From an uncultured virus (IMG/VR IMGVR_UViG_3300027798_002855) (lineage: Duplodnaviria > Heunggongvirae > Uroviricota > Caudoviricetes), in the IMG/VR virus record IMGVR_UViG_3300027798_002855: 20,000 nt of DNA. One strand, written 5' to 3'. The notes below the pieces were generated by a model. That model was not told the DNA's origin, searched no databases, and saw only the letters and a program-made list of their open reading frames with translations. The position numbers and the translations under genes were made by a program. The stretch's first letter is position 1. The number at the start of each line of letters is the position of its first letter. Shown here piece by piece: positions 2,287-20,000 of this stretch.

Positions 2287-2287
2287 A

Positions 2288-2296: not shown

Positions 2297-2313
2297 AAAG
2301 GGTAAGGAGCAAT

Positions 2314-5300: not shown

Positions 5301-5892
5301 AGCTCCAGTAGAGTTGTTTGAAATAGAATATCGTTCTGATACTATTAAATTTTATTTTGTTGCGGATAGCGAAACTGGAGATCGTGCAAGAATATACGCC
5401 CTGAGTTTAGAAACAGGCGAATCTTATGACGGCATATCGTATTATTGGAATGGTACCCTTGTTAGGGAGCCAGTTTTAACAAGAAACGAATGGGGAGTTT
5501 TGGGCATAGGATTTTCTAATGCATTAAACTTTGATCTATATCTTGGCGGTATTAATCTAAACGGACCACTTGTATTTAACAACATAGCATACTATCAGGC
5601 TAATAATCTACAACAAGTTCAGAGTACCCTTACCAGACCATGGCAGCAAGTAATAACAGATGGTGCAACCAACTTCCAATGGGAGTACTGGCTTAATTCT
5701 TCAACATGGCAAGGCGTTCTTGTTATTGGATCCTCAGAACTTTATGGCGTAAACCCAAGCGATGTTTATAAAACATATATTGGAACTAATAAGATTATTT
5801 TTGATGATGAAGAGGGCTTGACCGTAGATGCAGATAAAATAAAGGTCTATACCGATACAGTTTGGACAATTAGGGTCGGTACACCAGTATAA
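2314..5892 (+). CDS. Large putative virion protein with LamG/concanavalin A-like and carbohydrate-binding-like beta-sandwich domains
   Basis: 1192 aa, rich in Ser/Thr/Asn/aromatics; N-terminal YAEKVFSEHPTVLWALDD and later YTVEFWARI...NNATVLVNGEEV...IDCVAIYSY resemble Laminin_G_3 signatures; good RBS. Confidence 0.65.
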   Translation: MSNPSNLYAEKVFSEHPTVLWALDDTADYISLITEAQRSFTSWTVTNATRSVANAPSTEPFTDSVVNKLDFVIPANTSFQVTCVSSDLINFSNLNSDYATFSVGGYFFDSTAVLDSVEIGYEYTDTTTAQNVRNLNTFDTNLNNAWGFVSGTFETPNENTTMRAVIKATFSGGASTSTTSFYLNGISLGQWSENFNTQSLGISAASITSANIAIATTEGVEAEAYGLGSEHGYYLVNDSALVAKNSSIPMVFGASGVTVLTPSATSEPSLIVPGKGFLNEAGRHKEYTVEFWARINSSTTTPKRIFGPIASSDGLYVESGFLTLVIGNQFGSHFVGEWYRPMLIHVRIIRNNATVLVNGEEVISLSISTDTMILPDILNNSDEEQDWLGFYAYEDVTPIEIDCVAIYSYQVPLPVAKRRWVYGQGVLSPEGINSAYGGTSAFIDYPFADYTANYTYPDFANWNQGSFDNLITSDTYISTPNYQLPNIFIDEEVLQDLYDDNQNIQAGSNKFITFRPTTSWNSVHAYYNFPNFNVLNEEVKAVYGVFSHDDVTSINQTLFKIYNKTNGNYFQVVQDDNQLIYSLTHNGASTSLYTYNTISVDQIFAVGINIPDLVSRFGGNVASFFGNRNGLELYVAGDNTAANTFEGNLYSFGFCTALNADEADGYFSNGFAAVTSGQDLIDFTASYTLLPTEAYDTYFLDIGVAGYWEDYLPLSYFAQFVENDRGETYYDLDFLQFNIGYPKPSELLEQASTSAFTYQQLKDDYEYPVQRTYSQLDNYLFTGWENYQQMIGRTEKYYEYDTEDASIRSFVTFQYVELGANAPRGDFTTRTAREGSIIDIDNFTNWPSTKFEVVDNTLIYPSKSIDFNQLAVVYHLDFNIRGILRKPIRLRRLELASQSFNNNSFNPVGTRFGVDIFPYKRSGIYYDYKAKNPFSIYKGSTPYLYMTRTSGIQVRGDYDPLVNRGLAIPINPNTADDYRISAVQMWLRYDERQFPEAPVELFEIEYRSDTIKFYFVADSETGDRARIYALSLETGESYDGISYYWNGTLVREPVLTRNEWGVLGIGFSNALNFDLYLGGINLNGPLVFNNIAYYQANNLQQVQSTLTRPWQQVITDGATNFQWEYWLNSSTWQGVLVIGSSELYGVNPSDVYKTYIGTNKIIFDDEEGLTVDADKIKVYTDTVWTIRVGTPV

Positions 5893-5894
5893 TC

Positions 5895-5903
5895 TGCTAT
5901 ACT
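5895..5903 (+). promoter_or_regulatory. Extended -10 promoter (TGCTATACT), probably giving a leaderless mRNA starting at ATG 5911
   Basis: 7 nt separate the -10 hexamer from ATG 5911; no Shine-Dalgarno is present. Confidence 0.7.
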
Positions 5904-5910
5904 TATGGAT

Positions 5911-6294
5911 ATGAATAGCGAAAAAATCCCAAAAGTTGGTAATGTAAGGCGCAAAGTCATAGAAAAAAACTATGATTGGGGTCTTTATGTGTATAAAAAA
6001 TCTAATGGCAAGTGGTTTACAGATGGCCAGGGTAGCGTATTAAACGTTCCAGCCATGCGTGGAGACATATCAAAGATATCAGAACTTAAGAAGGCGGCCA
6101 TGTATTATGGCGATGAGGGTGACGGAGAATGCATATTTGTCCCTGGACTTAACAGGGTATCAGAAGAGCAGTATTCAGAAATGAAAGATAGAATGGCGCA
6201 AGGACTTATTCCAAATGTTAATGACCTTGGTGCTGTTTATGATGCACAGCAAACTTTAAAGAAACACGGAAGAGACGCATACGACAATGAATGA
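5911..6294 (+). CDS. Hypothetical protein directly upstream of and overlapping the portal gene (127 aa; ORF track start 5905)
   Basis: Open frame with an 8-nt overlap into the portal start; start moved to 5911 because ATG 5905 lies only 1 nt after the -10 element. Confidence 0.8.
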   Translation: MNSEKIPKVGNVRRKVIEKNYDWGLYVYKKSNGKWFTDGQGSVLNVPAMRGDISKISELKKAAMYYGDEGDGECIFVPGLNRVSEEQYSEMKDRMAQGLIPNVNDLGAVYDAQQTLKKHGRDAYDNE

Positions 6295-7888
6295 GAATTT
6301 TGATTACATATCAGCCAGTTTAAATACTCAAATTAAAGATCCAACTCCTTTTGCAAATATGGATCCTTTTACTAAATCTTGGGATGAACTTAAAGGCTTG
6401 AATGGTATTGACAATAACTTTAGACGCAGAACAAGTAGAAGCATTACAAAGGTTGCATCAGAAAGTCCAGCATATCTTGACTCTGCTAGTGCGACACCCT
6501 CTGGCGATGACTCAAAATCAAAACAAATAAATCCTGGCACGGTATACAGAAACGGCTATGGATTATTTGATGTAATTACCCCGCCATACAACATGTATGA
6601 GTTGGCAAACTTCTATGATACAAACTTTGCTAATCATGCTGCTATCGATGCAAAGGTAGAAAATGTTGTAGGTCTTGGATACCGATTTGATATTACAGAT
6701 CGCACAATGCTCAGTTTTGAAATGAGCGATGATGATGGTAGAGTAGAAAGAGCAAGAAACAGAATTGAACGAGCAAAGATTATGCTTCGTGATTGGCTAG
6801 AAGATCTTAATGACGATGATTCTTTTACAACTACAATGGAAAAGGTTTATACGGACTTACAGTCTACTGGAAATGGATTTCTTGAAGTTGGTCGTAAAGT
6901 AAATGGAGAGATTGGCTATCTTGGTCACATTCCTGCTACGACTATCCGTGTTCGTCGTTTAAAAGATGGTTTCGTACAGATTATTGGAAGTAAGATGGTT
7001 TACTTTAGAAACTTTGGTGCTAGAAATGCCAACCCGATTACATCTGACGGAAGACCAAACGAGATTATTCATCTAAAACAATATTCTCCACTAAATACAT
7101 TCTATGGTATTCCTGACATCCTTTCAGCAATGCCTTCGCTAATTGGAGACCAGTTGGCATCTCAATACAACATTGATTACTTTGAAAATAAGGCTGTTCC
7201 ACGATATGTTATTACAGTAAAGGGCGCTAAGTTATCTGCTGATGCAGAAGACAAGATGTTTAGATTTCTTCAAACAGGACTTAAGTCTCAGTCTCACAGA
7301 ACTCTATACATTCCTCTTCCTGGAGATACAGACAACAACAAGGTTGAGTTTAAAATGGAGCCAATTGAAAACGGTATTCAAGAAGGTTCATTTAAAGAAT
7401 ATCGTAAACAAAATCGTGATGACATTTTGATTGCTCATCAGGTTCCAATTTCTAAACTTGGTGGGTCTGATTCTTCTGGTATTGCTGCTGCTATTTCTCA
7501 AGACCGCACTTTTAAAGAGCAGGTCTCTAGACCAGCACAAAGATATCTAGAGAAGATGGTAAATAAGATTGTTAAAGAAAAGACTGATATTTTAGAGTTA
7601 AAATTCAACGAGTTAACTCTTACAGACGAAATAGCACAGTCTCAAATTCTTGAGCGGTATGTAAAAACTCAAGTAATGACTCCAAACGAGGCTCGTGAGA
7701 AGTTAGATCTTCCACAGCGTTCAGATGGGGATGTTCCATTTGTTATGAGTCCAAGACAGGCTACTGACGCTAGAGCAGATTTGGCAGGGAATCGACAAAG
7801 AGATACAGAAAGAACAAATAATAACTCTGACTCCCCATCCACAATCGCTGGCCGTAATCCACAGGGTGAGGGCCGTTCATCCACATAA
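6287..7888 (+). CDS. Phage portal protein (HK97/PBSX-like family)
   Basis: 533 aa; DLQSTGNGFLEV, LGHIPATTIRV, NEIIHLKQYSPLNTFYGIP, YFENKAVP, VMTPNEAREKLDLP are typical portal motifs; sits before protease and capsid genes. Confidence 0.93.
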   Translation: MNENFDYISASLNTQIKDPTPFANMDPFTKSWDELKGLNGIDNNFRRRTSRSITKVASESPAYLDSASATPSGDDSKSKQINPGTVYRNGYGLFDVITPPYNMYELANFYDTNFANHAAIDAKVENVVGLGYRFDITDRTMLSFEMSDDDGRVERARNRIERAKIMLRDWLEDLNDDDSFTTTMEKVYTDLQSTGNGFLEVGRKVNGEIGYLGHIPATTIRVRRLKDGFVQIIGSKMVYFRNFGARNANPITSDGRPNEIIHLKQYSPLNTFYGIPDILSAMPSLIGDQLASQYNIDYFENKAVPRYVITVKGAKLSADAEDKMFRFLQTGLKSQSHRTLYIPLPGDTDNNKVEFKMEPIENGIQEGSFKEYRKQNRDDILIAHQVPISKLGGSDSSGIAAAISQDRTFKEQVSRPAQRYLEKMVNKIVKEKTDILELKFNELTLTDEIAQSQILERYVKTQVMTPNEAREKLDLPQRSDGDVPFVMSPRQATDARADLAGNRQRDTERTNNNSDSPSTIAGRNPQGEGRSST

Positions 7889-7920
7889 TATCCACATAGT
7901 GATATAAACTAGTGATATAA
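7877..7920 (+). repeat. Two pairs of short direct repeats: ATCCACATA (7879-7887, 7890-7898) and TAGTGATATAA (7897-7907, 7910-7920)
   Basis: Read directly from the portal/protease junction. Confidence 0.85.
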
Positions 7921-7921
7921 T
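7913..7921 (+). promoter_or_regulatory. Extended -10 promoter (TGATATAAT) for the protease-scaffold-capsid unit
   Basis: TGn-TATAAT with 9 nt between it and ATG 7931; no clear SD. Confidence 0.7.
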
Positions 7922-7930
7922 TGGGAAACA

Positions 7931-9226
7931 ATGATTATGAACAAAGCACAATGGACTACAAGTGGCGATAGCGTTCGTTTTTCAATGCCTATTGGCAAAA
8001 TTGATCAAGAACGTCGTATCGTTTCAGGTTTTGCAACATTAGATAATATTGACAAGCAAAACGATATCGTAACTACTGAAGCAAGTATAACTGCTTTTAA
8101 GAAGTTCCGTGGCAATCTTCGTGAAATGCATCAACCAAGTGCTGTTGGCAAAGTTGTTTCTTTTAAAGAGGATCGTTATTTTGATCCAGAAACAAAAAAG
8201 TTTTACAGCGGAGTTTATGTTTCGGCATACGTCTCCAAAGGCGCACAAGACACTTGGGAAAAGGTTCTTGATGGAACACTGACTGGTTTTTCAATTGGTG
8301 GAAACATTACTAAATCTGATGATGAGTTTAACAAAGAACTTGATAAGCCTGTGCGTATAATTAAAGAGTATCAACTGCATGAGTTATCTCTTGTAGACAA
8401 CCCTGCTAATGAATTTGCTAATGTCCTCTCAATTGAAAAGGGAGAACTTAGCGGGTACTTAGCAAAAACAGAAATTGAAAATGTTTTCTGGGATCAAGAT
8501 AGTGATATTGTTTTAATATCTTCTTCTGAAACAGAAATAAGCCCAAACTCTGGAAAGCCAATGAAGAACATTGGTTTTGTAGAGAAATCAGATTCTGATA
8601 ATGCAGAAAAAATAAAGTTCTTAGTTGATAGTGCAAAAGGCATTAGAACAATTAAGATGACAAAGGAGGATAATCCTATGACAGAAGAAACACAAGTTGT
8701 TGCAGAGGCACCAGCCGATGCAGCACCAGTCGTTGAAAATGTTGAGGTTGCTCCAGAGGCTACAGCAGAAGTCGTAGTAGAACCAGAAGTAGTTGCTCCA
8801 GAAGCACCTGCTGATGCTGAAATTGCTAAGACCGATGAAGTTGCTCCTTCAACAGAAGAAGTTGTAGAGAAGAAAGAAGATGTTGTTACAGATATCGCCA
8901 AAGATGTAACAGATATTAAAGATTCTCTAACTAATGCCTTGAGCAGTCTAGCAGAAACCGTTAAGTCACTTCAGGTTAACGTTGATGCAATAACAAAGTC
9001 CCTTGAAACAGTTACAGGCGAAGTAAAGTCTGTAGCAGGTGAGGTCAAAGAAGTAAAGGGTTCTTTTGATGAGTTTGGAAAGCGAGTAGATCTTGTAGAA
9101 AAAGATACTGCTTTCCGCAAGTCTGGCGATCTAGGCGAGATCGTACAGGAGTTCCCAGAAATGAGAACTCAAAAATCCCTATGGGGCGGACGTTTCCTCA
9201 CAAATGCCGACCTATTCAACAACTAA
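7931..9226 (+). CDS. HK97-family prohead (maturation) protease fused to a C-terminal scaffold region
   Basis: RIVSGFATLDNIDKQNDIV, LREMHQ (His), GFSIGG (Ser), ELSLVDNPAN match the HK97-type protease; the C-terminal part is an acidic E/A/V/P-rich stretch followed by a coiled-coil-like region. Confidence 0.9.
   Translation: MIMNKAQWTTSGDSVRFSMPIGKIDQERRIVSGFATLDNIDKQNDIVTTEASITAFKKFRGNLREMHQPSAVGKVVSFKEDRYFDPETKKFYSGVYVSAYVSKGAQDTWEKVLDGTLTGFSIGGNITKSDDEFNKELDKPVRIIKEYQLHELSLVDNPANEFANVLSIEKGELSGYLAKTEIENVFWDQDSDIVLISSSETEISPNSGKPMKNIGFVEKSDSDNAEKIKFLVDSAKGIRTIKMTKEDNPMTEETQVVAEAPADAAPVVENVEVAPEATAEVVVEPEVVAPEAPADAEIAKTDEVAPSTEEVVEKKEDVVTDIAKDVTDIKDSLTNALSSLAETVKSLQVNVDAITKSLETVTGEVKSVAGEVKEVKGSFDEFGKRVDLVEKDTAFRKSGDLGEIVQEFPEMRTQKSLWGGRFLTNADLFNN
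8678..9226 (+). CDS. Nested in-frame scaffolding protein (182 aa, MTEETQVVAEAP...)
   Basis: Strong SD AAGGAGG at 8663-8669, 8 nt before in-frame ATG 8678, at the boundary where composition turns scaffold-like. Confidence 0.75.
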   Translation: MTEETQVVAEAPADAAPVVENVEVAPEATAEVVVEPEVVAPEAPADAEIAKTDEVAPSTEEVVEKKEDVVTDIAKDVTDIKDSLTNALSSLAETVKSLQVNVDAITKSLETVTGEVKSVAGEVKEVKGSFDEFGKRVDLVEKDTAFRKSGDLGEIVQEFPEMRTQKSLWGGRFLTNADLFNN

Positions 9227-9249
9227 AAAACCAAATGGAGGTGAACAAT

Positions 9250-10371
9250 ATGTCGGAACAAGAAAAACTAGTAAAAGCCGCTGAAGCGGGCGCATTCGTG
9301 TCAGGTGGAATTGGCAGTGCTACTGCTACAGATCCAAATGGCAACGTGTCCCCTGCTGCATCTTTAGGTGCAGTTTCAGGCGGAACATTCGGTGTTACAA
9401 CTGGACAAAACGCAGTAAATCCAACAGGTACATCTGGTGGTATTCTAGCACCTGAACAAGCAAGACGCTTTATCGACTACGTGTGGGATGCAACAGTTCT
9501 CGCCAAAGATGGTCGTAGAGTTACAATGCGAGCAAACACTATGGAGATTGAAAAAGTCAACGTAGGAGAGCGTGTTATTCGTGCTGCTGCACAAGCAGAT
9601 GACGCATATACAAACGCAGGCGCAACATTTACAAAGGTAGAACTAACAACCAAAAAGATTCGTCTTGATTGGGAAGTTTCTACTGAGTCTCTAGAGGACA
9701 ATATTGAAGGAGCCGCTCTTGAAGATCGTCTCGTTCGCTTGATGACCAATGCATTCGCAAATGACATTGAAGATCTAGCGATTAACGGTGATGGTGCAAC
9801 AGGATCATTCCTTTCAATCATGCCTGGCTTTATTAAGCAAACTCGTGGTACAGTAGGTAACGATGCTCACGAAGCAGCGATTACTGTAACAAGTGATAAC
9901 TGGACTACTTCGGTAATGCAGTCTATCATTCTTGCACTACCACGCAAGTATCGCTCACTTAAGAGCAATCTTAAGTTCTATGCTGGTACAGATGCATTCC
10001 AAGGAATCATTAAGAATAATGGTACCCTTGCTGATGCAATTGCACAAGCATTCTCAACTAAAGACGGTCTGCTTCGCACAGAAGCAAACAGTCAAGCATA
10101 TCTTGATGGTGGCTCTCAGACATTCGGTGGTGCTCGCACTACCCGTGTTCTCGGAGTTGACGTCATGGAGGTCCCTTACTATCCAGATGGATATGTCGAT
10201 TTGACATTCCCTGAGAATCGTGTATGGGGTTTCCAGCGTGATATCACGGTCAACCGTGAATACAAGCCAAAGAAAGATACAATCGAGTACACAGTATTCG
10301 TACGCTTTGGTCTCGCTTGGGAAGAGTTGGATGCAGTTGCTTATGGCGACGCAGACAGCGCAGATTCCTAA
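9250..10371 (+). CDS. Major capsid protein (HK97 fold), 373 aa; start corrected from 9181 to 9250
   Basis: SD GGAGGTGA at 9237-9244 before ATG 9250; GGILAPEQARRFID, LTTKKIRLDWEVSTESLEDNIEG, FANDIEDLAINGDG motifs; followed by a terminator. Confidence 0.93.
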   Translation: MSEQEKLVKAAEAGAFVSGGIGSATATDPNGNVSPAASLGAVSGGTFGVTTGQNAVNPTGTSGGILAPEQARRFIDYVWDATVLAKDGRRVTMRANTMEIEKVNVGERVIRAAAQADDAYTNAGATFTKVELTTKKIRLDWEVSTESLEDNIEGAALEDRLVRLMTNAFANDIEDLAINGDGATGSFLSIMPGFIKQTRGTVGNDAHEAAITVTSDNWTTSVMQSIILALPRKYRSLKSNLKFYAGTDAFQGIIKNNGTLADAIAQAFSTKDGLLRTEANSQAYLDGGSQTFGGARTTRVLGVDVMEVPYYPDGYVDLTFPENRVWGFQRDITVNREYKPKKDTIEYTVFVRFGLAWEELDAVAYGDADSADS

Positions 10372-10391
10372 AATCTGACCAACAAAATTAG

Positions 10392-10421
10392 AAGAGAGCG
10401 GCCTAGAAACCGCTCTCTTTT
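10392..10421 (+). terminator. Intrinsic terminator after the major capsid gene
   Basis: Perfect 10-bp stem AAGAGAGCGG / CCGCTCTCTT with an 8-nt loop, running into a T-rich tail. Confidence 0.85.
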
Positions 10422-10429
10422 AGTATTTC

Positions 10430-10438
10430 TGGTATAAT
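10430..10438 (+). promoter_or_regulatory. Extended -10 promoter (TGGTATAAT); RBS GGAGG at 10445-10449
   Basis: Directly downstream of the terminator, upstream of ATG 10455. Confidence 0.75.
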
Positions 10439-10454
10439 GACAGTGGAGGATTAA

Positions 10455-10784
10455 ATGTTATCTATTGAAGAATTAAAAACAAAAAGTGTTTTTGAAATTA
10501 AATCTTATGCTAAAAAAAATAACATTGACCTAAAAGATGCTGTTAAAAAAGTAGAGATGTTAAATATTTTGCAGGGTATAGAGCCAGAAAAACCAAAAGA
10601 AACAACAGTAGAAAAAGTTGCCCTATATTCAGATCATAATAAGCACACTACTGATAAGCAATTAGGATCTCTCAAAGTTGGTTATAATATAGTTACTAAG
10701 GAGGCAGCCGATTGGTGGCTTACTCGTAAAGGTGTTCGTGAAGCAACCCCTAACGAGATAGCAAGACACTACGGCATAGAATAA
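10455..10784 (+). CDS. Small protein with an N-terminal Rho-N/HeH-like helical domain
   Basis: EELKTKSVFEIKSYAKKNNIDLKDAVKKVEMLNIL fits the L..+++.EL+..AK..gI......+K.E++..I pattern; good RBS; typical post-capsid position. Confidence 0.6.
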   Translation: MLSIEELKTKSVFEIKSYAKKNNIDLKDAVKKVEMLNILQGIEPEKPKETTVEKVALYSDHNKHTTDKQLGSLKVGYNIVTKEAADWWLTRKGVREATPNEIARHYGIE

Positions 10785-11755
10785 TGGAAATATTACGTAT
10801 TCCGCCATACCCGATTGATATTCAATACACTGTGCCAACAGCAAGCACATCGTATTTTTTAGTCATTGAAAGTAACGATAGAAACGAAGAATTGCTAAGT
10901 GTTGCTGTAACATCAAGTGCATCTTCAGTTGTTACTCGTACCCTTTCAGACACCTTCTCAAAATATGATGAGCATTATGCTGTAACAATATATGAAAAGA
11001 ACGGAACTGCTCGTGGAGATGTTGTGGTTGAGGATAATCTTGAGATTGTTAGACCATACGTAGATCCAAACTCTCTTGGAACAACTGCAACAGAGATAGC
11101 AGAGTATACAGAACATGAAAGTTTAGCAAGAAATATAATTGATTCATATGTTCCAGATGGATTTTACTTTACTACAGAATGGCTGCAAATAGTTGGTCAG
11201 GGAACTGACTACATGCCTATTTGGACCAGAGGCTATAAAATTTTAAAAGTATATCGTAACTCAGAGTTGGTTTACGATGTTGATGACGCAGACGGTCCAG
11301 CATTAGATTCGTATGATTACAGCATTACAAAAGATAAAACTGGAATTATTAAAGATCCTGTTGCGGGAGTAGATAATTGGAACAGATATGAGCGTAAGCC
11401 TGCAAGAATGCCAATCGCTGCATCAGACTCCATTTCTTTTTTTGATACAGGAGATAGCGGAAACATTCAGACGTTTAGTGGTGGAGTTAGTTTCCCAGAG
11501 GGCGAAGATTATATGTTTTATATTGAGTCAGGGTATAAAGTAGTTCCTAATGATATTAAAGATGCAACAACCATGCTTATAGATGACATTAAATGTGGAA
11601 GACTTGATTACTATAAGAGATATGTAAAAAATTATAAAACTGATCAATTTAATGTTCAATACAACAGTTTAATGATGGAAGGAACTGGAAACCTTCTTGT
11701 TGATAAAATTTTAAACAAGTATGTAAACCTTATAACTCGTCCTGGAGTATTATGA
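10784..11755 (+). CDS. Head-tail adaptor (SPP1 gp15/HK97 gp6-like) with extra beta-rich sequence
   Basis: 323 aa; ARNIIDSYV and SGYKVVPNDIKDATTMLI...ILNKYV resemble adaptor motifs; TAATG coupling to the upstream gene; synteny. Confidence 0.65.
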   Translation: MEILRIPPYPIDIQYTVPTASTSYFLVIESNDRNEELLSVAVTSSASSVVTRTLSDTFSKYDEHYAVTIYEKNGTARGDVVVEDNLEIVRPYVDPNSLGTTATEIAEYTEHESLARNIIDSYVPDGFYFTTEWLQIVGQGTDYMPIWTRGYKILKVYRNSELVYDVDDADGPALDSYDYSITKDKTGIIKDPVAGVDNWNRYERKPARMPIAASDSISFFDTGDSGNIQTFSGGVSFPEGEDYMFYIESGYKVVPNDIKDATTMLIDDIKCGRLDYYKRYVKNYKTDQFNVQYNSLMMEGTGNLLVDKILNKYVNLITRPGVL

Positions 11756-12204
11756 TGGCAATCTGTGAAGATACAGATTTTATGTTTCCGATGAAGGCAG
11801 ACGTTTATTACCCTATAATAACTCAGGGAGATTATGGTCAGCCTAAAAAAGATTGGGTTTTTGATAAGACTATATCTTGTAATGCTACACCAATTGGCGG
11901 AGCGGGATCAGAAAATATCAAGCCAGAAACATTTTTACAGTATGAAAACAAGTTAGTTGCAAGAACAAAGAGTGATCCAAGAATATCTTCTCAGCAGCAA
12001 GGAAATGCTATAACTAACATTTTAGTAACAAACATAAGGCATTCTAATGATGAACTTGTCTATAGAGAAACTGCTGGAGTCCGTGCTGGAAGGGCAACAA
12101 TATTTGAGGTAGGAACTGTTGAGCCATTTTCTGGTCCATTTAACAAGGTTGAATATTACAAGATGCTTTGGCGCAGAGCCGAAAATCAGACCGTGGGTGA
12201 CTAG
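11752..12204 (+). CDS. Putative head closure/stopper protein (SPP1 gp16-like)
   Basis: 150 aa, beta-rich, GDYGQPKKDW motif; ATGA overlap with the adaptor; synteny. Confidence 0.55.
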   Translation: MMAICEDTDFMFPMKADVYYPIITQGDYGQPKKDWVFDKTISCNATPIGGAGSENIKPETFLQYENKLVARTKSDPRISSQQQGNAITNILVTNIRHSNDELVYRETAGVRAGRATIFEVGTVEPFSGPFNKVEYYKMLWRRAENQTVGD

Positions 12205-12881
12205 TGAGAGTCGTAACAAACGTTAAAAGTTTTAGAAAAACAATGAACAATATCATAGATTACTCATATGGATTTCTTGATGGAGTTCAAGACGGCAAAC
12301 CAATATTCTTGCAAAAACTTGGCAGAGAGGTTGTTGCAGCCCTTGGTCAATACATAGACATTAATGCCAAGTCAAATCCAAAAGCTTTGCATCACGTTTA
12401 TGAATGGTATCGAACTGGCAGTCCAAGATCAAGACTTTATGACATTGACTTTATTGTAAACAAAAATGGACTTTCTGTATTCTCTAATTTTAAACAATCA
12501 ACCAGTATGTCTGGAGATTCAACAACTCCATTTTTTAACAAAGCAAAAATTATGGAAAATGGCACTCCTGTTTTGATTAGACCAAAGAAGGCATCTGCTC
12601 TTGTTTTCAACTCTGGAGGCGAGACTGTCTTTACTAAAAATCCAGTTACTGTAACAAACCCTGGAGGAAATGACGTTCAAGGAGCATATGAGCAAGTTTT
12701 TGATGAATTTATGCTGAAGTATTTTAGGCAGTCTTTCATTCGTGCATCTGGTCTGTACGACTACATTAAAAGACCAACGGTATTTAAAAAGAACATTCGT
12801 GCTGGATCCAAGGTCGGTAGGGCAAAAGGAAAAAGCACGGGATTTGCTTGGATAGCAAATGCAAGAATTGGGGTAGAATAG
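12204..12881 (+). CDS. Putative tail completion/neck protein (HK97 gp10-like position)
   Basis: 225 aa, basic, IRPKKASALVF...VFTKNPVTVTNPG motif; GTG start overlaps the upstream TAG; synteny. Confidence 0.5.
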   Translation: MRVVTNVKSFRKTMNNIIDYSYGFLDGVQDGKPIFLQKLGREVVAALGQYIDINAKSNPKALHHVYEWYRTGSPRSRLYDIDFIVNKNGLSVFSNFKQSTSMSGDSTTPFFNKAKIMENGTPVLIRPKKASALVFNSGGETVFTKNPVTVTNPGGNDVQGAYEQVFDEFMLKYFRQSFIRASGLYDYIKRPTVFKKNIRAGSKVGRAKGKSTGFAWIANARIGVE

Positions 12882-12885
12882 TACA

Positions 12886-13476
12886 ATGACTAATAATATT
12901 AAAACAACAGGATTTGCTCCAACATACATAAACAACTATGTAAATAAGCAACTATCTGATTTTGGTTTGATATCTTCTGGGCCTACCTTGCCAAACCAGG
13001 CTGGGTTTAATCCTATGGTGCCAGCACAATATCCAACAAATATAGAAGATTTATATAATGACACAATTCAAATACAGCAGGTAGACTCTCCTATTCTAAT
13101 AGTATATGATCGCATGATGAGGTTTAGGCCTTCATCTTTTTACCGTCGTAAAAGAGAGCAGTTAATATATTTTGTTTATTCTTCAGATATTGAAAAACTT
13201 ATAAATACAATAAGAGTAATTAGTGATGCCTTGGATAGAGAAGACTCTGCTGCTCAAGATATAAATGCCTATACAGCATCACAGGCAACTACATCAAATT
13301 CAGCAAATATATTTTTTCATAATGTAAGGGTCTATCAGGCTGACGAGAGCAGGGACGTGGCCGAATTGGCCTCTGCCAGAACCCTATTTGTAAACAAGAT
13401 TATAGTGGAATATGACTACCATACAAACGACACTATAACCATTTCGGGCACTTCTTATACTAATATCTATACCTAA
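12886..13476 (+). CDS. Putative tail terminator protein
   Basis: 196 aa immediately before the major tail gene; PILIVYD strand and mixed alpha/beta pattern; call rests mainly on synteny. Confidence 0.5.
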   Translation: MTNNIKTTGFAPTYINNYVNKQLSDFGLISSGPTLPNQAGFNPMVPAQYPTNIEDLYNDTIQIQQVDSPILIVYDRMMRFRPSSFYRRKREQLIYFVYSSDIEKLINTIRVISDALDREDSAAQDINAYTASQATTSNSANIFFHNVRVYQADESRDVAELASARTLFVNKIIVEYDYHTNDTITISGTSYTNIYT

Positions 13477-13481
13477 AAGGC

Positions 13482-13490
13482 TGTTATAAT
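13482..13490 (+). promoter_or_regulatory. Extended -10 promoter (TGTTATAAT) for the major tail gene
   Basis: TGn-TATAAT in the intergenic gap. Confidence 0.75.
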
Positions 13491-13544
13491 TGGTATTGAG
13501 GAAACACGCCCACCTATTTAACAAAGAAAAAAGAGGTGAACAAT

Positions 13545-14198
13545 ATGCCAGCATATAGCCGTGGTACGTCTAACAACATTATCGTTGGAGCAGCCGCGTT
13601 TTTTCTATGTGATACGACAGTAACAGCCGCACAGGCTTTTACTTCAGCCGCATCTCCAGCATTTGTAAGCACAGAGTCATACAAATCCACTCTGTCTGCA
13701 GATCCTGATTGGAACAACGTTGGTTACACAATGAACGGTCTTGAAATGCAATTCCAACCTGACTTCGGTGAGGTTGCAGTTGATCAAATTCTTGATGTTG
13801 CAAAACTTTACAAACAAGGTATGCAGGTAAATGTTGCTACAGCATTCGCTGAAGCAACTCTTGAGAATCTACTTTATGCCCTTGCATTTAATGAGTCAGA
13901 ACTCACTGGTACAAAAACAACTTCTTCAGGTCGTCGTCTGAATCTTTCAGCAGGCGAACTCGGAGAGTGCCCAGTTGAGCGAGCAATTGCAGCCGTCGGT
14001 CCAGGTACTGGCGATTGCGATGACTCAGGTAACGTAGAACGTGTCTATCTCGGATATCGTGCGCTTTCAATTGAAAACGTAACGGTTTCTGCGAAGCGTG
14101 ATGAACCTTCAATGTTTGAAGTTTCATTCCGTCTACTTCCAGAAGACTCATCTGGTGCATACGGTAAGATCGTAGATCGCACTCATACCGCATCATAA
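13545..14198 (+). CDS. Major tail (tube) protein, 217 aa; start corrected from GTG 13536 to ATG 13545
   Basis: GTG 13536 is part of the SD GAGGTGA; NIIVGAA, VGYTMNGLEMQFQPDFGEVAVDQ, FAEATLENL, FEVSFRLLP resemble siphoviral tube proteins; own promoter and terminator. Confidence 0.85.
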   Translation: MPAYSRGTSNNIIVGAAAFFLCDTTVTAAQAFTSAASPAFVSTESYKSTLSADPDWNNVGYTMNGLEMQFQPDFGEVAVDQILDVAKLYKQGMQVNVATAFAEATLENLLYALAFNESELTGTKTTSSGRRLNLSAGELGECPVERAIAAVGPGTGDCDDSGNVERVYLGYRALSIENVTVSAKRDEPSMFEVSFRLLPEDSSGAYGKIVDRTHTAS

Positions 14199-14220
14199 TC
14201 TTAAAATAAGATTAATAACA

Positions 14221-14253
14221 GCCCACTCCCTAATGGGGGTGGGTTTGTTGTTT
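14221..14253 (+). terminator. Intrinsic terminator after the major tail gene
   Basis: Stem GCCCACTCCC / GGGGGTGGGT (two G-U pairs), TAAT loop, then TTGTTGTTT. Confidence 0.85.
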
Positions 14254-14254
14254 A

Positions 14255-14263
14255 TGGTAAAAT
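14255..14263 (+). promoter_or_regulatory. Extended -10 promoter (TGGTAAAAT), probably giving a leaderless mRNA at ATG 14271
   Basis: 7 nt (AGATAAA) between the -10 hexamer and the ATG; no SD. Confidence 0.7.
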
Positions 14264-14270
14264 AGATAAA

Positions 14271-14981
14271 ATGGCTACAGAGATATATAAAATAGAAAAA
14301 ATACAATTAGTTGATGGAACAGAAATAGAACTGATTCCATTAAAAATAAAATATCTAAGAGAATTTATGTCGGTATTTAATGCAATCCGTGTAACTAAAA
14401 ATGATCAAGAAGCAATCCTTGTGTTATCAGAATGTGCAAGAATATGCATGAAACAGTACTATCCAGAAATATCAAAAACAATAGGAATGTTAGAAGATAA
14501 CCTAGATCTTCCAACGGTATATAAAGTATTAAATGTAGCGGCTGGTATTAAGATAGATAAAAAATCAGAAGAACCTGTAAAGGATCAAGCAACAGAAAGT
14601 GGTTCTACTTGGGATTCTTTAGACTTAGCCAAACTAGAATCTGAGGCATTTTTGCTCGGTATATGGAAAGATTATCAAGAACTAGAAGAGTCTTTATCAA
14701 TGCCAGAACTTATGGCTACCCTCTCCAGCAAGAGAGAACTAGACTATGAAGAAAAGAAATTTTTAGCAGCAATTCAGGGTGTTGATTTAGATTCTCAAAG
14801 CGGAAGTTCAAGAGGCCAAAAAGAATGGGAAGACATGAAGGCGAGGGTATTTAGTAAAGGCAAAACCTCAGATAGTAATGATATCCTAGCACTACAAGGT
14901 CCTGCAGCCCAGAAGGCAGGGTTTGGCATTGGAATGGGCATAGACTATGAAGATATGCGTGATCCATCAATAGTTAATTAA
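14271..14981 (+). CDS. Tail assembly chaperone, long form (G-like domain fused in frame to a T-like extension)
   Basis: 236 aa between major tail and tape measure genes; N-terminal ~95 aa are paralogous to the 109-aa downstream protein. Confidence 0.75.
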   Translation: MATEIYKIEKIQLVDGTEIELIPLKIKYLREFMSVFNAIRVTKNDQEAILVLSECARICMKQYYPEISKTIGMLEDNLDLPTVYKVLNVAAGIKIDKKSEEPVKDQATESGSTWDSLDLAKLESEAFLLGIWKDYQELEESLSMPELMATLSSKRELDYEEKKFLAAIQGVDLDSQSGSSRGQKEWEDMKARVFSKGKTSDSNDILALQGPAAQKAGFGIGMGIDYEDMRDPSIVN

Positions 14982-15009
14982 TAAAGTATTTTTAAAAATA
15001 GGCCTTTCA

Positions 15010-15018
15010 TGCTATAAT
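15010..15018 (+). promoter_or_regulatory. Extended -10 promoter (TGCTATAAT); strong RBS AGGAGG at 15034-15039
   Basis: Consensus TGn-TATAAT upstream of ATG 15044. Confidence 0.75.
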
Positions 15019-15043
15019 TACATTAGCCTATATAGGAGGAAAA

Positions 15044-15373
15044 ATGGCAACAACTACGTATGAGAGTCAAGAACTTGTACTTATGGATGGAACTACAATA
15101 GCAGTGAGACCTTTAAAAATCTCTTTGCTTCGTCCCTTCATGAGCAAGTTTGAAAAAGTGGCAGAGGTGGCAGAAGATAACGAGAAGTCTATGACTCTCC
15201 TTATTGAATGTGTAAAAATTGCTATGCAGCAATATAAGCCAGAACTGGCTGATGTTCAGAAACTAGAGGAAGTTTTAGACCTTCCAACAGTTTACAAAAT
15301 CATTGAGGCTGCTTCAGGAGTTAAACTTCAAGATGCAAACGCTCTGCTAAACACAGTGCTTGCAAATAACTAA
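15044..15373 (+). CDS. Tail assembly chaperone, short form (G-like)
   Basis: 109 aa directly upstream of the tape measure gene; DGT.I...PLKI..LR.FMS and LDLPTVYK shared with the 236-aa gene. Confidence 0.78.
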   Translation: MATTTYESQELVLMDGTTIAVRPLKISLLRPFMSKFEKVAEVAEDNEKSMTLLIECVKIAMQQYKPELADVQKLEEVLDLPTVYKIIEAASGVKLQDANALLNTVLANN

Positions 15374-15392
15374 AAAGTAAGAGGTGTTATAA

Positions 15393-18300
15393 GTGGCTGA
15401 TGTAAATGCTAATATTGGCATACATGTAGACACTTCTTCATCTTTAGCACAAATAAAGGCGCTACAGCGTCAACTAGCATCACTCTACACAAGTATCAAT
15501 AGAGGTAGCGCTGCTGCGGCAGTAGCCCAAAAGGGCCTTGCTACAAACTTAATGAACAGCATAAATGCTGGCGGTAAGTTTTATGCTCAGATGGGCTCAG
15601 TTCGCACAAGTACGGAATCCTTTACTCACGCACTAGAGAAAAATAAACTCACTATGCGTGAGTATTTCCGTTTTGCTGGCGGATCTACAAGAACATTTGG
15701 AAGACTATTTAAATCAGAATTTAACACGATTGGCAGGGTAGCCGAAGAGCGTGTCAAGAAGATGCAGACCCAGTATGTTAAGTTGGGTCGTGATGCATCT
15801 GGAGCAATGAAGGCAATGTCCATAACTCCTACATCTTTAAATATGAAAGATTATGGAACCAGGGTAGCAGTAGCAGCACAAAAACAAGCAATATTAAATC
15901 AACTACTTAGACAAGGCTCTACCAACATATTGAACTTTGGTAAGAATATGCAGTGGTCTGGTCGTCAGTTGATGGTTGGTTTTACAGTGCCTCTTGCATA
16001 CTTTGGTGCTCTTGCTGGTAAAACATTTATGGATCTTGAAAAACAAGCTCTTAGATTTAAGCGTGTTTATGGAGACATGTTTACAACTTCAGATCAAACA
16101 AATAAAGCACTTGAAGAGGTACAGGCCTTAGCTAAGGGATTTACTAAGTATGGAGTTGCTGTTGCTAAAACTATGGAAATGGCTGCAAGTGCTGCAGCTA
16201 TGGGTAGAACAGGCGCAGAACTTACAGCGCAGGTTGCACAAGCCACAAGACTTGCAGTTCTTGGCAATGTTGAACAAGAAGAGGCACTTAAGACAACAAT
16301 ATCTTTAACGGATGCTTTTGGTTTGGCTGCAGAAGATCTAGCAGGGAAAATTAACTTTTTAAACTCTGTTGAAAACCAAACTATAACAGCAATTGAAGAT
16401 TTGACTATTGCTATTCCAAAGGCTGGACCAGTTGTTAAACAACTTGGAGGTAGCGTAGAAGATCTTGCATTCTTCCTAACTGCTATGCGTGAAGGTGGCA
16501 TCAATGCATCCGAAGGTGCTAACGCACTTAAGTCTGGTTTGGCATCTTTGATTAATCCATCAGATAAAGCAGCAGCAATGCTTGGCGATTTGGGAATTAA
16601 CATAAAAGGAATCGTTGAAGGAAATGTTGGAAATCTAAAACAGACAGTAATTGATTTTGCAAATGCATTAGACACTCTTGCCCCACTTGACAGATCAAGG
16701 GCAATTGAGCAATTATTTGGTAAGTTCCAGTTTGCACGTTTATCTACTTTATTTGAAAATGTTACTAAAGAAGGCGGGCAGGCGGCAAGAGTGTTGGATC
16801 TTGCTGGAAAGTCCATAGAAGAGCTTGCAATCTTGTCAGAGCGAGAACTAGGTGCAATAGAGGACTCTGTAGCAACAGATTTCAAAGAAGCCATAGAGCA
16901 ATTTAAATTAACTATTGCTCCAATAGGAAAAGAGTTTTTAAAAGCAATAACTCCTGTTGTTAAGTTTTTTGGAGAACTGTTTGAAAAATTTGGCAATCTT
17001 AGCGATGGATCTAAAAAGTTTATAGTAATCCTAACAACCCTTATTGGGCTTGTAGGTCCTACCCTGCTTATGACCTTTGGTTTGGTTGCTAACGGTGCAG
17101 CAAACATTATTAAAATGTTCTTGTTAATGAGAACTGGATTTTTAAAATTAAGTGGCAATAGTCAGGTTCTTGCTCAACAAACACAATATTTGAATACCGA
17201 ACAAATGGAAGCGGCTGTAGTTGCTGCGTCTTTGAATCAAGCACACTCAAGGCTTACTCAACAATTTAATATTGAAACAACAGCATTAAATCAACTTAGA
17301 AATGCATATATCACAGCCACTGCAGCAGCAGCAAGGTTTGCAGCAGCAAATCCTGGAATGATGATTCGTGGAGCAGGAAAAGTACCAAAGAAGTTTAATT
17401 CTGGAACCATGAAAGTTCCAGGGTACAAAAAAGGAACCGACTCAGTACCAGCAATGCTTACACCAGGTGAGGCGGTAATTCCAGAACCCATAGCACAAGA
17501 TGATAGATTTAAACCACTTGTTGCTGCACTTGTGTCCGGAGAAATAGCAAAGTATGAAACCGGAACAACAAGCGTAGTCTTCGGTGGAAATAAGTATAAT
17601 GCTAAAACTGCAAAAAGCTCTAAAAGTTTAAGTTTATTCTTAAATGGTCTTGTCAAAAATCCAGACGGAACTCTTACATATAACGATCCAAAGGATCCGT
17701 CTCTTACTAAAACTTTTACAAAAGAAAGATTAACACAGGTTCTTGCAAAATATTCTCCAAGAGGAGACTTAACTCTTGATAAAATTAAAAGATCTTTAGA
17801 GCTTGGAACATCTTATCAAGGCAAAAGAGGAGCAGGAAAATCATCTGCAGATCCTTACCTTAAAGCACTTGTTCAAAAAGCAAAATATCCAAATGCTTTA
17901 GCAGAACAACAAAAGATTGAGTCCACATTAAAACAAAAAGGAATTACTGCAAGTCAGCAGCAATTAAGAAATCTATTTCAGACACAAGCAGCTCACATTG
18001 TTCCAGATGTTGATGCAAATGGTAAAAAAATATGGAGAGCAGCAAACATTGTTCCAGATGCAGGCTATATAAATAACTACATGAACACTGCTGGTAAAAA
18101 TATAGGTAAAGAGCTTCAAGCAATGTCTGATAACGATTTAAAAAAGCTTGGTATTAAAAGATCAGAACTAAACAACATAGTTCGCGGACGTCACCCAATG
18201 ACTGGAGCAGCAGCAGGAACCTTGGCAAACATTGCAAGGTATCAAATTTCTAAAAATCCTAATGCAAGAGGAATATATCAAGCACACGCAGTGACTGCTG

Positions 18301-20000
18301 GAATGGATTATAGAGCTTCAACAGGATTTTATCCCGCTTCTGGAGCAATAAAAACTCTTGCTCAAATTTTCCCTAAAGATCCAAGAATAATAAAAGAGCT
18401 TGGAAAAAAAGTTGCTGTTGGCATTGGAGAAAAAATTAAGGGTGCTTCTGGAAAAATTACACAAGTAACTGGTCAAACAGGAAAACCAAGACCTCCTGGA
18501 ATGCAGGTTTCTGGAGGAGCTTCAAGTGATAGACGTATTGTTCCTGCTTCAGCTGCTCCTACGGTTTTTCCAAGAGGATTTAGAGGCCCAAGGCCATTTG
18601 CTCTGGGAGCAGATAAAGGATTGGGCGAAGGCAAGGTAGTCAAAAAAGGCTCAGCTGGCGCATCTTCAAGTAAGATTACAGCAGAAACAAGAAGAACAGA
18701 AAAGTCTATCAAAGAAAATACAAAAGCAAGAAACGATAATACAAAATCTACTGTTGCTGAATCTAAGTCTAAAAGTCAAGGAACAGTAGTACAACAAAAA
18801 AATACTCAGGTTACAAGTCGATATACGGAAGCACAAAGACAGGCTGCACGTGATCGTGCTGCTCTTCAACCTAGAAATGAAGCGGGTAGATTCATAAAAG
18901 GATCTGCTGTAGCACCACCTGGTCCAATAGACCCAAAGGCTGCTCGCATGGAAAAAATGCAAAGAATGTCAGCCAGGACTGGACCTATTGCAATGGCTGC
19001 AGGAACTGCGGCTATGGTCGCAGCTATGAGCGGTGCTGATCAAAAAATAACCAATATGCTATTTGGAGTTTCCATGATTGCTGGATTACTTCCATTGTTT
19101 ACTAGTAAACTTGGAGGTTTATTTGCTGTTGTTGCCCTAGTTGGTCTTGGAATGTACAAATTAGCTTCAGATATAAATAAAGCACGAGAAGAAGGGGTTG
19201 CTTTCGCTAAATCATTGACAATGACAAATGAAAAACTAATAGAGTTATCAAAAATTACTGGACAAGTTAGCGCTACAGAATCGGCAAAAAGGGGAAGACA
19301 GGCTCAACTCTCTGGCGCATCTGGAGTTCAAAGAAAAACAGGACAGAACATTATTCAAAGTGATTTTGGCAAAGGTCTTCTTAAAGATATAGAGAGTCAA
19401 AAAAAGTCAGGAGCCTCTGATGCCGATGTTGCAAATAGTGTTGCATTAGGATTATCAACTGCAATCATGCAAGGGGTTGTGACAACCGAGCAAGCAAAAA
19501 GCATTTCTGCTGCCCTTGGTGAAAAGCTTGGTAACTACAGCATTCCAGCACAAGTAACTGGAAAAATAGTGAGCCTGGTTGGTCCAAATGGAGAACGTCT
19601 AGAAAGCCAGCCATTGCAAGTTGCTCTTGAAATTAAAAAAGATTCAATGGAGCAGCAGGCTAAGGTGTTTCAAAATGCCATGTCACAAAGAAAAAGTTCT
19701 ACTTTAAGCACTGGAATGGGTGTTGGTTCTATTATGGCTGGAGCTGTTGCAGTCACAGCAGCCTCAGGTGGGTTGTTGGCTCCAGCAGCATTAGCCGCTA
19801 GTATTGGACTGGCTACTGCGGCAGCAATTCAAGGATCCAAAGTAAGAGCAAATAATCTTAAACTTGATACTGCAGCAATTCAGCTTGGATTTGAATCTAT
19901 AGCACAAGGTCAAGGACTTGTAGACTCACTTAATAAGCAGTATGATAATAAAATTAAACAAGCAAAAACCGAAAAGGAAATTAGCACACTTGAAGCAGAG
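15393..20000 (+). CDS. Tail tape measure protein (TP901-like core), 3'-truncated, at least 1536 aa
   Basis: SD GAGGTG 15381-15386, GTG 15393 (MADVNANIGIHVDTSSSLAQIKALQRQL); frame reads open to the window end (...EISTLEAE); Ala/Gly-rich helical core (EGGINASEGANALKSGLASLINP), hydrophobic segments, GTDSVPAMLTPGEAVIP motif. Confidence 0.92.
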   Translation, partial: MADVNANIGIHVDTSSSLAQIKALQRQLASLYTSINRGSAAAAVAQKGLATNLMNSINAGGKFYAQMGSVRTSTESFTHALEKNKLTMREYFRFAGGSTRTFGRLFKSEFNTIGRVAEERVKKMQTQYVKLGRDASGAMKAMSITPTSLNMKDYGTRVAVAAQKQAILNQLLRQGSTNILNFGKNMQWSGRQLMVGFTVPLAYFGALAGKTFMDLEKQALRFKRVYGDMFTTSDQTNKALEEVQALAKGFTKYGVAVAKTMEMAASAAAMGRTGAELTAQVAQATRLAVLGNVEQEEALKTTISLTDAFGLAAEDLAGKINFLNSVENQTITAIEDLTIAIPKAGPVVKQLGGSVEDLAFFLTAMREGGINASEGANALKSGLASLINPSDKAAAMLGDLGINIKGIVEGNVGNLKQTVIDFANALDTLAPLDRSRAIEQLFGKFQFARLSTLFENVTKEGGQAARVLDLAGKSIEELAILSERELGAIEDSVATDFKEAIEQFKLTIAPIGKEFLKAITPVVKFFGELFEKFGNLSDGSKKFIVILTTLIGLVGPTLLMTFGLVANGAANIIKMFLLMRTGFLKLSGNSQVLAQQTQYLNTEQMEAAVVAASLNQAHSRLTQQFNIETTALNQLRNAYITATAAAARFAAANPGMMIRGAGKVPKKFNSGTMKVPGYKKGTDSVPAMLTPGEAVIPEPIAQDDRFKPLVAALVSGEIAKYETGTTSVVFGGNKYNAKTAKSSKSLSLFLNGLVKNPDGTLTYNDPKDPSLTKTFTKERLTQVLAKYSPRGDLTLDKIKRSLELGTSYQGKRGAGKSSADPYLKALVQKAKYPNALAEQQKIESTLKQKGITASQQQLRNLFQTQAAHIVPDVDANGKKIWRAANIVPDAGYINNYMNTAGKNIGKELQAMSDNDLKKLGIKRSELNNIVRGRHPMTGAAAGTLANIARYQISKNPNARGIYQAHAVTAGMDYRASTGFYPASGAIKTLAQIFPKDPRIIKELGKKVAVGIGEKIKGASGKITQVTGQTGKPRPPGMQVSGGASSDRRIVPASAAPTVFPRGFRGPRPFALGADKGLGEGKVVKKGSAGASSSKITAETRRTEKSIKENTKARNDNTKSTVAESKSKSQGTVVQQKNTQVTSRYTEAQRQAARDRAALQPRNEAGRFIKGSAVAPPGPIDPKAARMEKMQRMSARTGPIAMAAGTAAMVAAMSGADQKITNMLFGVSMIAGLLPLFTSKLGGLFAVVALVGLGMYKLASDINKAREEGVAFAKSLTMTNEKLIELSKITGQVSATESAKRGRQAQLSGASGVQRKTGQNIIQSDFGKGLLKDIESQKKSGASDADVANSVALGLSTAIMQGVVTTEQAKSISAALGEKLGNYSIPAQVTGKIVSLVGPNGERLESQPLQVALEIKKDSMEQQAKVFQNAMSQRKSSTLSTGMGVGSIMAGAVAVTAASGGLLAPAALAASIGLATAAAIQGSKVRANNLKLDTAAIQLGFESIAQGQGLVDSLNKQYDNKIKQAKTEKEISTLEAE
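17987..18060 (+). repeat. 23-nt imperfect direct repeat with a 51-nt period inside the tape measure gene
   Basis: AGCAGCTCACATTGTTCCAGATG (17987-18009) vs AGCAGCAAACATTGTTCCAGATG (18038-18060), 21/23 identical; encodes AAHIVPD / AANIVPD. Confidence 0.85.

Follow-up and report, generated by a model that had tools for sequence, protein, structure and literature searches.

The tetranucleotide AGCT is almost missing from the first 16 kb of a 20,000-nucleotide (nt) stretch of DNA from an uncultured freshwater siphovirus (IMG/VR record IMGVR_UViG_3300027798_002855; the whole stretch is hereafter called the window) and becomes frequent inside its last gene, the tape measure gene (TMP), which raises the question of what purged the word from one part of a phage genome and how it came to be present in another. 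The initial annotation of the window had proposed that the backbone evolved under AGCT-directed selection, while most of the TMP came more recently from a lineage free of it, with one breakpoint near or before position 16040. We consider it probable that AGCT was purged by restriction-type selection and that the window belongs to a hybrid lineage carrying imported TMP alleles, in a mosaic that is more intricate than a single boundary.

An exact recount reproduced all 22 AGCT sites at the coordinates given in the initial annotation, with three in 1–16000 (3761, 5301 and 12383) and 19 in 16001–20000, ten of the latter within 17616–18656. Dinucleotide-preserving shuffles of the whole window predicted 102.9 ± 9.2 sites (200 of 200 shuffles had at least 22), and a second-order Markov model predicted 50.8 sites in 1–16000 and 33.1 in 16001–20000. 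A two-rate model was favored over a one-rate model (twice the log-likelihood difference, 26.3), with the maximum likelihood change point at 16040 and a two-log-likelihood support interval of 15450–16130. The backbone (1–14882) holds three AGCT, no CCGG and one CGCG; in the entire window CGCG occurs only at 13595 and 18183, and CCGG only at 17536 and 17560, 24 nt apart, both at the end of the conserved N-terminal domain of the TMP. In codon-preserving shuffles, in which synonymous codons were exchanged among positions of the same amino acid (300 per region), the backbone genes at 256–15373 were expected to carry 58.7 ± 6.1 AGCT (3 observed), the first 651 nt of the TMP (15393–16043) 5.5 ± 1.8 (none observed) and the remainder of the TMP (16044–19997) 31.8 ± 4.1 with a minimum of 20 (19 observed), and in none of the three regions was any of the 300 shuffles as low as the real sequence. 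The protein encoded by 16044–19997, when re-encoded with backbone codon usage, was still predicted to carry 29.0 ± 4.5 AGCT. The notion that an alanine-rich TMP with other codons simply offers more chances for AGCT, suggested by its higher AGC and GCT content per kb and an AGCT expectation per kb about twice that of the backbone, is practically untenable, since the contrast survived both the shuffles and the re-encoding, the proximal part of the very same gene is AGCT-free and AGCT-free relatives encode homologous TMPs without a single AGCT. No meaningful tandem or direct repeats were found in the TMP (15393–20000), where a 406-nt spacing was a coincidence and not a repeat; its 19 sites are therefore independent and not repeat copies, and internal repeats were discarded as their origin.

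Comparison with relatives (loci are numbered L, longer records and genomes G and sequencing runs X) placed the proposed selection on the backbone on firmer ground. We identified 37 related loci in IMG/VR, of which 26 had no AGCT over 6.8–22 kb, four were nearly AGCT-free (L001, L003, L004 and L014) and seven carried at least 0.3 of the expected number. Twenty-three AGCT-free loci pooled together (368,791 nt) had no AGCT against about 1,397 expected, making it the lowest of all 136 strand-collapsed 4-mers, and were also poor in CGCG (10 observed, 132 expected) and CCGG (51 observed, 225 expected). Five loci considered tolerant (89,773 nt) had 371 AGCT for 520 expected, together with 3 CCGG for 54 expected and 3 CGCG for 31 expected. 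The larger genomes behaved alike: AGCT-free G002 (110 kb) had 0 of 343 expected AGCT, 0 of 56 CGCG and 8 of 86 CCGG; AGCT-free G003 (70 kb) had 0 of 226, 0 of 27 and 0 of 37, respectively; and tolerant G005 (61 kb) had 216 of 321, 0 of 16 and 0 of 30. The cultured relative BoomerJR, with 238 AGCT for 245 expected, does not avoid the word. When the TMP N-termini were arranged in a tree (30 rows), every major clade, and the outgroup pair too, contained AGCT-free contigs, and the tolerant label required at least three changes. The exclusion of AGCT in this family is thus all-or-none and lineage-specific, with CGCG and CCGG co-purged. It is also widespread among environmental phages beyond the family of the window, as 12 of 42 more distant viral contigs (L075, L076, L078–L082, L084, L089, L092, L097 and L110), which share only a motif of about 30 amino acids (aa) with a G001 protein, likewise had no AGCT where 16–68 were expected; their GC content was 38–51% (43–51% in 11 of the 12), and some keep normal CCGG or CGCG. 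In a literature search whose scope did not include supplementary files, AGCT-free freshwater phages were not found described.

The codon context indicates at which level this selection operates. In G002, alanine is encoded by GCT in 0 of 679 cases after a codon ending in A and in 774 of 1675 cases otherwise (46%), leucine by CTN in 0 of 68 cases after NAG and in 935 of 2001 otherwise (47%), and serine by AGC in 0 of 481 cases before a codon starting with T and in 204 of 1854 otherwise (11%). The corresponding frequencies in tolerant G005 were 19% versus 39% for alanine, 60% versus 57% for leucine and 8% versus 10% for serine, and those of the TMP at 16044–19997 were 15% versus 47%, 88% versus 56% and 8% versus 14%, values that match a long-tolerant genome such as G005 and do not match a purged one. 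At positions homologous to AGCT sites of the window, AGCT-free relatives have AGCC, AGCA, GGCT, TGCT or AACT, that is, one-letter synonymous dodges. Because codon choice depends on the neighboring codon in all three reading phases, selection in this family acts on the DNA word and not on the protein; with the total exclusion across the family, this bears out the AGCT-directed selection first proposed for the backbone.

The identity of the window to individual relatives changes abruptly along its length. Between 5501 and 14882, sliding-window identity to L012 and L018, and mostly also to L014, was 98–100%, except for a patch at 12303–12810; L012 and L018 are AGCT-free over 8.7 and 6.8 kb, respectively. 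The patch is 70–88% identical to the same three loci within flanks of 97–100% identity (112–114 mismatches in 12100–12950), and the lone AGCT of 5501–14882 falls in it. In run X6, the flanks of this patch had high depth and 12201–12800 had a depth of about zero, and 14901–15800 was uncovered as well; such contig gaps prove nothing alone and are at most a hint of allele variation. Few mismatches to L012 and L018 occur as far as 14882, and they become dense from 15031/15054 onward (junction J1), beyond which identity to these loci falls to 75–93%. The allele that follows is 85.5–87.0% identical to L002, L012, L014, L015, L016, L018, L027 and L034, which are all the sampled relatives outside the lineage of the window itself, and lies on a long branch. 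AGCT-bearing DNA begins at a second junction (J2), where, in three of four runs (X4, X6 and X7), co-occurring variants have contigs that diverge at 15985/15986, close to the change point of the likelihood analysis and in keeping with a breakpoint near or before 16040.

Downstream of J2, the segment 15986–16292 groups with tolerant L015 and L027 (FastTree Shimodaira–Hasegawa support, 0.95), and at its three AGCT sites the AGCT-free relatives have AGCC, GGCT, TGCT or AGCA. It gives way to a 200-bp patch (16293–16492) that again resembles AGCT-free loci, where the sister assemblies L001 and L004 are 86% identical to the window and have AGCT at positions homologous to 16388 and 16421 (L001 also at 16441). 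The AGCT at 16822 is common to L015 and L027 and reads AACT in AGCT-free relatives. About 725 N-terminal amino acids of the TMP are conserved and its distal part is hypervariable: only L035 and L013 are collinear with the latter, with 60–62% aa identity over the whole TMP and 47% over 17613–19997. Protein searches with the distal TMP revealed no closer relative and no near-identical contig past position 20000 among viral or metagenome contigs, and an exact 33-mer from the window end had no match in viral contigs. Trees of separate segments, a check suggested by the initial annotation, were incongruent, with segment A joining L012/L018, segment C joining L015/L027 and segment D lying near L002/L012/L014, as judged from FastTree local supports on short segments. 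From these comparisons, the window lineage is a recombinant mosaic with two junctions in the TMP region and sub-kb patches (Table 1). The single boundary initially envisaged is therefore retained in part, as J2, to which have to be added the earlier J1 and the return to AGCT-free-like sequence at 16293–16492. The drop in identity, the G005-like codon context and the grouping of 15986–16292 with L015/L027 support the view that the TMP DNA from 16044 on derived from a lineage without the AGCT constraint.

As CCGG is purged even in the tolerant relatives, the TMP donor may lie outside both the AGCT-free and the tolerant groups. The imported or hypervariable part of the TMP also stands out in a second compositional respect: at 17001–19500, AT skew rises to 0.19–0.25 and GC skew falls to about 0, both being about 0.1 upstream.

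Table 1 Segments, junctions and selected genes of the window.
Feature	Position (nt)	Strand	Remarks
AGCT-purged backbone	1–14882		Reductase, 1192-aa protein, portal, protease, capsid and tail genes
Divergent patch, about 500 bp	12303–12810	+	Inside the open reading frame (ORF) 12204–12881; AGCT at 12383, TCGA at 12410
Junction J1	14883–15054		End of near-identity to AGCT-free L012/L018
Divergent AGCT-free allele	15055–15985	+	Second chaperone ORF and first ~590 nt of the TMP
Junction J2	15985–16046		AGCT-bearing DNA starts; change point 16040
Imported segment (putative)	15986–16292	+	AGCT at 16046, 16130 and 16196; 74–81% identity to relatives
200-bp patch	16293–16492	+	No AGCT; 96–97% identical to AGCT-free L002/L012/L014
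Remaining conserved TMP N-domain	16493–17567	+	74–81% identity; AGCT at 16822, two CCGG
Hypervariable distal TMP	17568–20000	+	15 AGCT, one CGCG (18183)
Class II ribonucleotide reductase	First in gene order	+	Family matches
1192-aa ORF	2314–5892	+	No Pfam or PHROG match; between ribonucleotide reductase and portal
First chaperone-like ORF, 236 aa	Within 14271–15373	+	phrog_10504 combined with phrog_10474
Second tail-assembly-chaperone-like ORF, 109 aa	15044–15373	+	phrog_10504; inside the divergent allele
Tape measure gene	15393–20000	+	phrog_10030 (E 2.6e-93), PF10145; >1535 aa, open at the window end

An assembly artefact, in which two co-occurring related phages were joined in the conserved 5′ region of the TMP, had been recognized from the outset as a possible source of the boundary. 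Related strains do co-occur, their contigs branching at 15985/15986, and the junction region contains conserved stretches of 94–98% identity. However, the same hybrid was found in three other IMG/VR contigs from different samples (L001, L003 and L004), all with the same signature of one AGCT at −3010 from the TMP start followed by AGCT from +653, as well as in G001, a 36-kb record that contains window positions 1–17005. Logan contigs from runs not flagged as a possible source bridged the junctions with no differences, namely in X3 (14742–16198), X4 (14824–15446 and 15473–16203) and X7 (14835–15858); X3 also covered 16702–19051 with 11 differences. All the bridging data are short-read assemblies and not single molecules. 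Given the separate records and the bridging contigs of other runs, the hybrid junctions are real, and a chimera in the assembly is a very remote prospect. One X3 contig jumps from 15064 to 15390, which would delete the second chaperone-like ORF; this observation is weak, with 22 nt on one side.

It could also be argued that nothing was imported and that the fast-evolving TMP gained AGCT in place by mutation once selection was relaxed, the slower backbone having not yet done so. TMPs evolve fast, and AGCT also occurs elsewhere in this sub-clade. The 19.2 kb of G001 that lie upstream of the window contain 15 AGCT for about 73 expected, so that the hybrid genome is patchy and not clean outside the TMP, and L014, which shares the backbone, gained AGCT by single-letter changes in a context of 95–99% identity, for example at the counterpart of position 14805, where AGTT became AGCT. 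Seven of the 15 upstream sites of G001 fell in 250-nt bins without a match in AGCT-free relatives, which is no clear enrichment, and the only close relative found for that part, L066, belongs to the same lineage and has the same sites, and hence offers no contrast. The pattern of divergence nevertheless speaks against relaxation in place: the backbone differs by 0–2% from its AGCT-free sisters and the TMP by 10–25%, across sharp boundaries, which points to allele replacement and not to a change of rate. Furthermore, the codon context of the TMP is already at the level of long-tolerant genomes, and the 200-bp patch inside it returns to 96–97% identity. We thus regard relaxation without import as highly unlikely, and favor the import of TMP alleles into a purged backbone. 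The scattered AGCT upstream, the point gains in L014 and the TMP import together indicate a sub-clade in which the AGCT constraint was recently lifted.

The explanation that we prefer for the purge and the hybrid would run as follows. A host Type II restriction system of the AluI kind (AluI recognizes AGCT and comes from an actinobacterium) would act on phages that have no protective methylase, and DNA-level selection would remove every AGCT, and CGCG and CCGG as well, with the protein kept through a change of the alanine, leucine or serine codon or of the final letter in the codon before it. The window lineage would have retained a backbone near-identical to that of its AGCT-free sisters while homologous recombination swapped in foreign TMP alleles at 14883–15054 and at about 15985–16046. 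If the AGCT-cutting enzyme is polymorphic among host populations, phages moving to hosts without it would escape the cost and could take up AGCT-bearing alleles. Since one site would suffice for the DNA to be cut, the hybrid would now have to replicate where AGCT restriction is absent or neutralized, in keeping with the scattered AGCT in other parts of its genome and with the point gains in its close relative L014.

Protection by a phage methylase, the search for which had also been proposed at first, found no basis in the genomes. PF00145 was not detected in G002–G006, and a Pfam scan revealed no DNA methyltransferase in 111 ORFs of G002, 50 ORFs of G005 (which is only about 56% complete, so that the absence applies to the part seen) and 29 ORFs of the upstream part of G001. 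The only methyltransferase-type domains of G002 were FkbM-type and Methyltransf_24, adjoining sugar enzymes. A methylase as the explanation of tolerant lineages is accordingly unsupported in the parts scanned, and the involvement of a host enzyme, the other half of that proposal, stays at the level of a plausible agent. The encoded WhiB, a marker of Actinobacteria and their phages, points to Actinobacteria as hosts of G002. When WhiB was used to scan genome contigs, the matches led to phage-like contigs mis-binned in metagenome-assembled genomes (MAGs; L059–L061), all of them AGCT-free. PF00145 was present in 41 of 151 sampled genomes of the phylum of G007, a tally in which the unpublished G026 and G096 are counted and from which we draw no conclusion. 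G007 itself (a MAG under the title uncultured Acidimicrobiaceae) turned out to be a mixed bin: its contigs C2–C4 have 70% GC, and C1 (271 kb) and C5 (136 kb) have 33–42% GC with no CGCG over 160 kb, where about 81 were expected, and normal AGCT (L131–L137 and L141). The term 'restriction' does not occur in PMC12143481.

Several observations weigh against the preferred explanation. Neither a host nor an AGCT-specific enzyme was identified in our genome scans and in the literature on freshwater Actinobacteria, and 20-kb samples of 14 actinobacterial genomes, low-GC ones included and the unpublished G009 set aside, were not depleted in AGCT. According to the available part of a methylome study of Lake Biwa, seven freshwater actinobacterial draft bins, which are incomplete, had no methylated motif or methyltransferase, and AGCT methylation (as N4-methylcytosine) was reported only in a thaumarchaeon (PMC6329791). 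Identity alone gives no direction of exchange at J1. The actual TMP donor is outside the sampled loci, among which the best DNA match reaches about 80% identity, and L035 and L013, to which the distal TMP is most closely related, are both AGCT-free. The imported segment is itself somewhat under expectation (19 sites versus 31.8). Finally, about 39 kb of the hybrid phage have been seen, leaving about two thirds of its genome outside the data, and a methylase or anti-restriction gene may have been acquired in that part or at the AGCT-bearing 3′ end.

The rival that survives best accepts the purge as real and attributes it to an agent other than classical restriction-modification (R-M), be it an unrecognized AGCT-directed defence, a phage-borne AGCT nuclease directed at host DNA, or some other process of the sort suggested for pandoraviruses; under such an agent, the TMP import would still point to lineages that are not exposed to it. 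It draws on the lack of AGCT depletion in the sampled actinobacterial genomes, on the 12 unrelated viral contigs (38–51% GC) that are also AGCT-free, and on published cases, at least as far as the accessible portions of these reports go: pandoraviruses lost AGCT with R-M tested and excluded (10.1101/712018), and the Lake Biwa bins were free of AGCT methylation and of methyltransferases (PMC6329791). On the other hand, CGCG and CCGG, classic Type II targets, were purged alongside AGCT, an explanation by AluI-type enzymes is known and has many phage precedents, and the complete G002 yielded no candidate nuclease or methylase, although about 70% of its ORFs are without a Pfam match. As to the negative host data, these are themselves weak, since the bins are incomplete and the method is blind to 5-methylcytosine (m5C), for which single-molecule real-time (SMRT) sequencing has little power. 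We hold a non-classical agent in this broad sense to be unlikely, and consider it quite unlikely that the purge is driven specifically by an AGCT-directed defence other than a methylase-protected restriction system. If it were, such a defence would fit the apparently methylation-free freshwater Actinobacteria, the AGCT-free, hybrid and tolerant phage lineages would map it among uncultured hosts, and hybrids such as the window would mark recent crossings of that barrier. Restriction-type selection combined with imported TMP alleles nonetheless remains the explanation that we favor.

Every called gene of the window lies on the plus strand. The ribonucleotide reductase is followed by the 1192-aa ORF and then by the genes for portal, prohead protease, major capsid protein, several unknown proteins, an Ig-domain major tail protein, the two chaperone-like ORFs and the TMP. 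The 1192-aa ORF is kept in G002 (L044:3296–6928) and G005 (L052:6661–10359) and occupies the position at which one would look for a large terminase. A megablast search of GenBank phages with the window gave no match, and DNA similarity to them is limited to a short TMP motif. Compared with Streptomyces BE-cluster phages, aa identity is 44–47% for the portal and 28–31% for the N-terminal ~600 aa of the TMP, and the gene order, from the reductase through portal, protease, capsid, tail and two chaperones to the TMP, is the same in BoomerJR (Stanwilliamsviridae). Judged by protein identity and gene order, the window phage appears to be distantly related to Streptomyces BE-cluster phages (Stanwilliamsviridae). 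G002 is a complete relative of 109,757 bp with direct terminal repeats, which encodes WhiB, PolIII alpha, DnaB, DnaG and RecA. The TMPs of relatives reach about 3,330 aa in G005 (L051:6949–16944) and about 2,680 aa in G003 (L054:11826–19859), so that the TMP of the window probably continues for more than 1,000 codons past the window end. Arrays of 2OG-Fe(II) oxygenase paralogues were observed in G005 (L052:13256–19830; seven consecutive) and in G002 (L047–L049), in regions that also encode many Gly_rich_2 domain proteins.

Avoidance of palindromes by lytic phages is a classical phenomenon; surveys of restriction-site avoidance are said to have been made by Sharp in 1986, Rocha et al. in 2001 and Rusinov et al. 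in 2018, and Staphylococcus phage K reportedly has no GATC. As in those cases, genomes of the family described here are free or almost free of a 4-bp palindrome, the changes are synonymous, several palindromes are purged together and the phage has no methylase. Unlike them, the family is polymorphic, with at least three switches, and includes one hybrid with a boundary inside a gene. Mosaicism of phage tail genes and of TMPs, as described by Hendrix and Hatfull, is equally familiar, and the sharp identity breaks relative to near-identical relatives, the patches of less than 1 kb and the hypervariable distal TMP cassettes agree with it. What differs from usual mosaicism is that a purged 4-mer serves here as an independent, composition-free marker of foreign patches. 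Both principles, restriction avoidance and tail-gene mosaicism, are textbook knowledge, and the window is a clear but ordinary case of both.

Three published cases of lost palindromes are closest, each described here as far as the accessible portion of its source extends. Five enterobacterial phages of about 350 kb have no GCGC (Poirot et al., 10.1101/712018). In the same source, A-clade pandoraviruses are described as having no AGCT, with R-M excluded by AluI/PvuII digestion and PacBio data (10.1101/712018). As in our family, AGCT was lost there to zero in a clade-specific manner, sister lineages keep it, and the replacements were random and non-directed. Pandoraviruses are, however, eukaryotic giant viruses of 2 Mb with a single amoeba host, in which R-M was excluded by test, whereas the present viruses are bacteriophages in which other Type II targets were co-purged and restriction is plausible; only the sequence pattern is shared. 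The halovirus HRTV-7 has no AGCT and also no CTAG and GATC, which was attributed to a host R-M target (PMC7230728). It resembles our family in that one member of a group has no AGCT while its relatives keep it; it is an archaeal myovirus represented by a single genome, for which the portion available describes no recombinant boundary.

The purged word resolves this mosaic unusually sharply, and the purge itself marks, in a way that can be read from sequence only, strong defence pressure in freshwater bacteria that are very abundant and for the most part uncultured. Phages whose contigs have zero AGCT would have been exposed to it, and those with normal AGCT would not. Since this pressure is of an all-or-none kind and has switched repeatedly in a single family, the motif may be used to sort metagenomic phages by the defence type of their hosts, to spot recombinant patches without any reference genome, and to predict an AGCT-cutting system that is polymorphic among hosts and whose protection, probably by m5C, would escape SMRT methylomes. 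Parts of the window (14001–20000) were contained in 20 public runs from 18 studies, almost all freshwater metagenomes; given this wide occurrence of the hybrid lineage, crossing the barrier is evidently no dead end.

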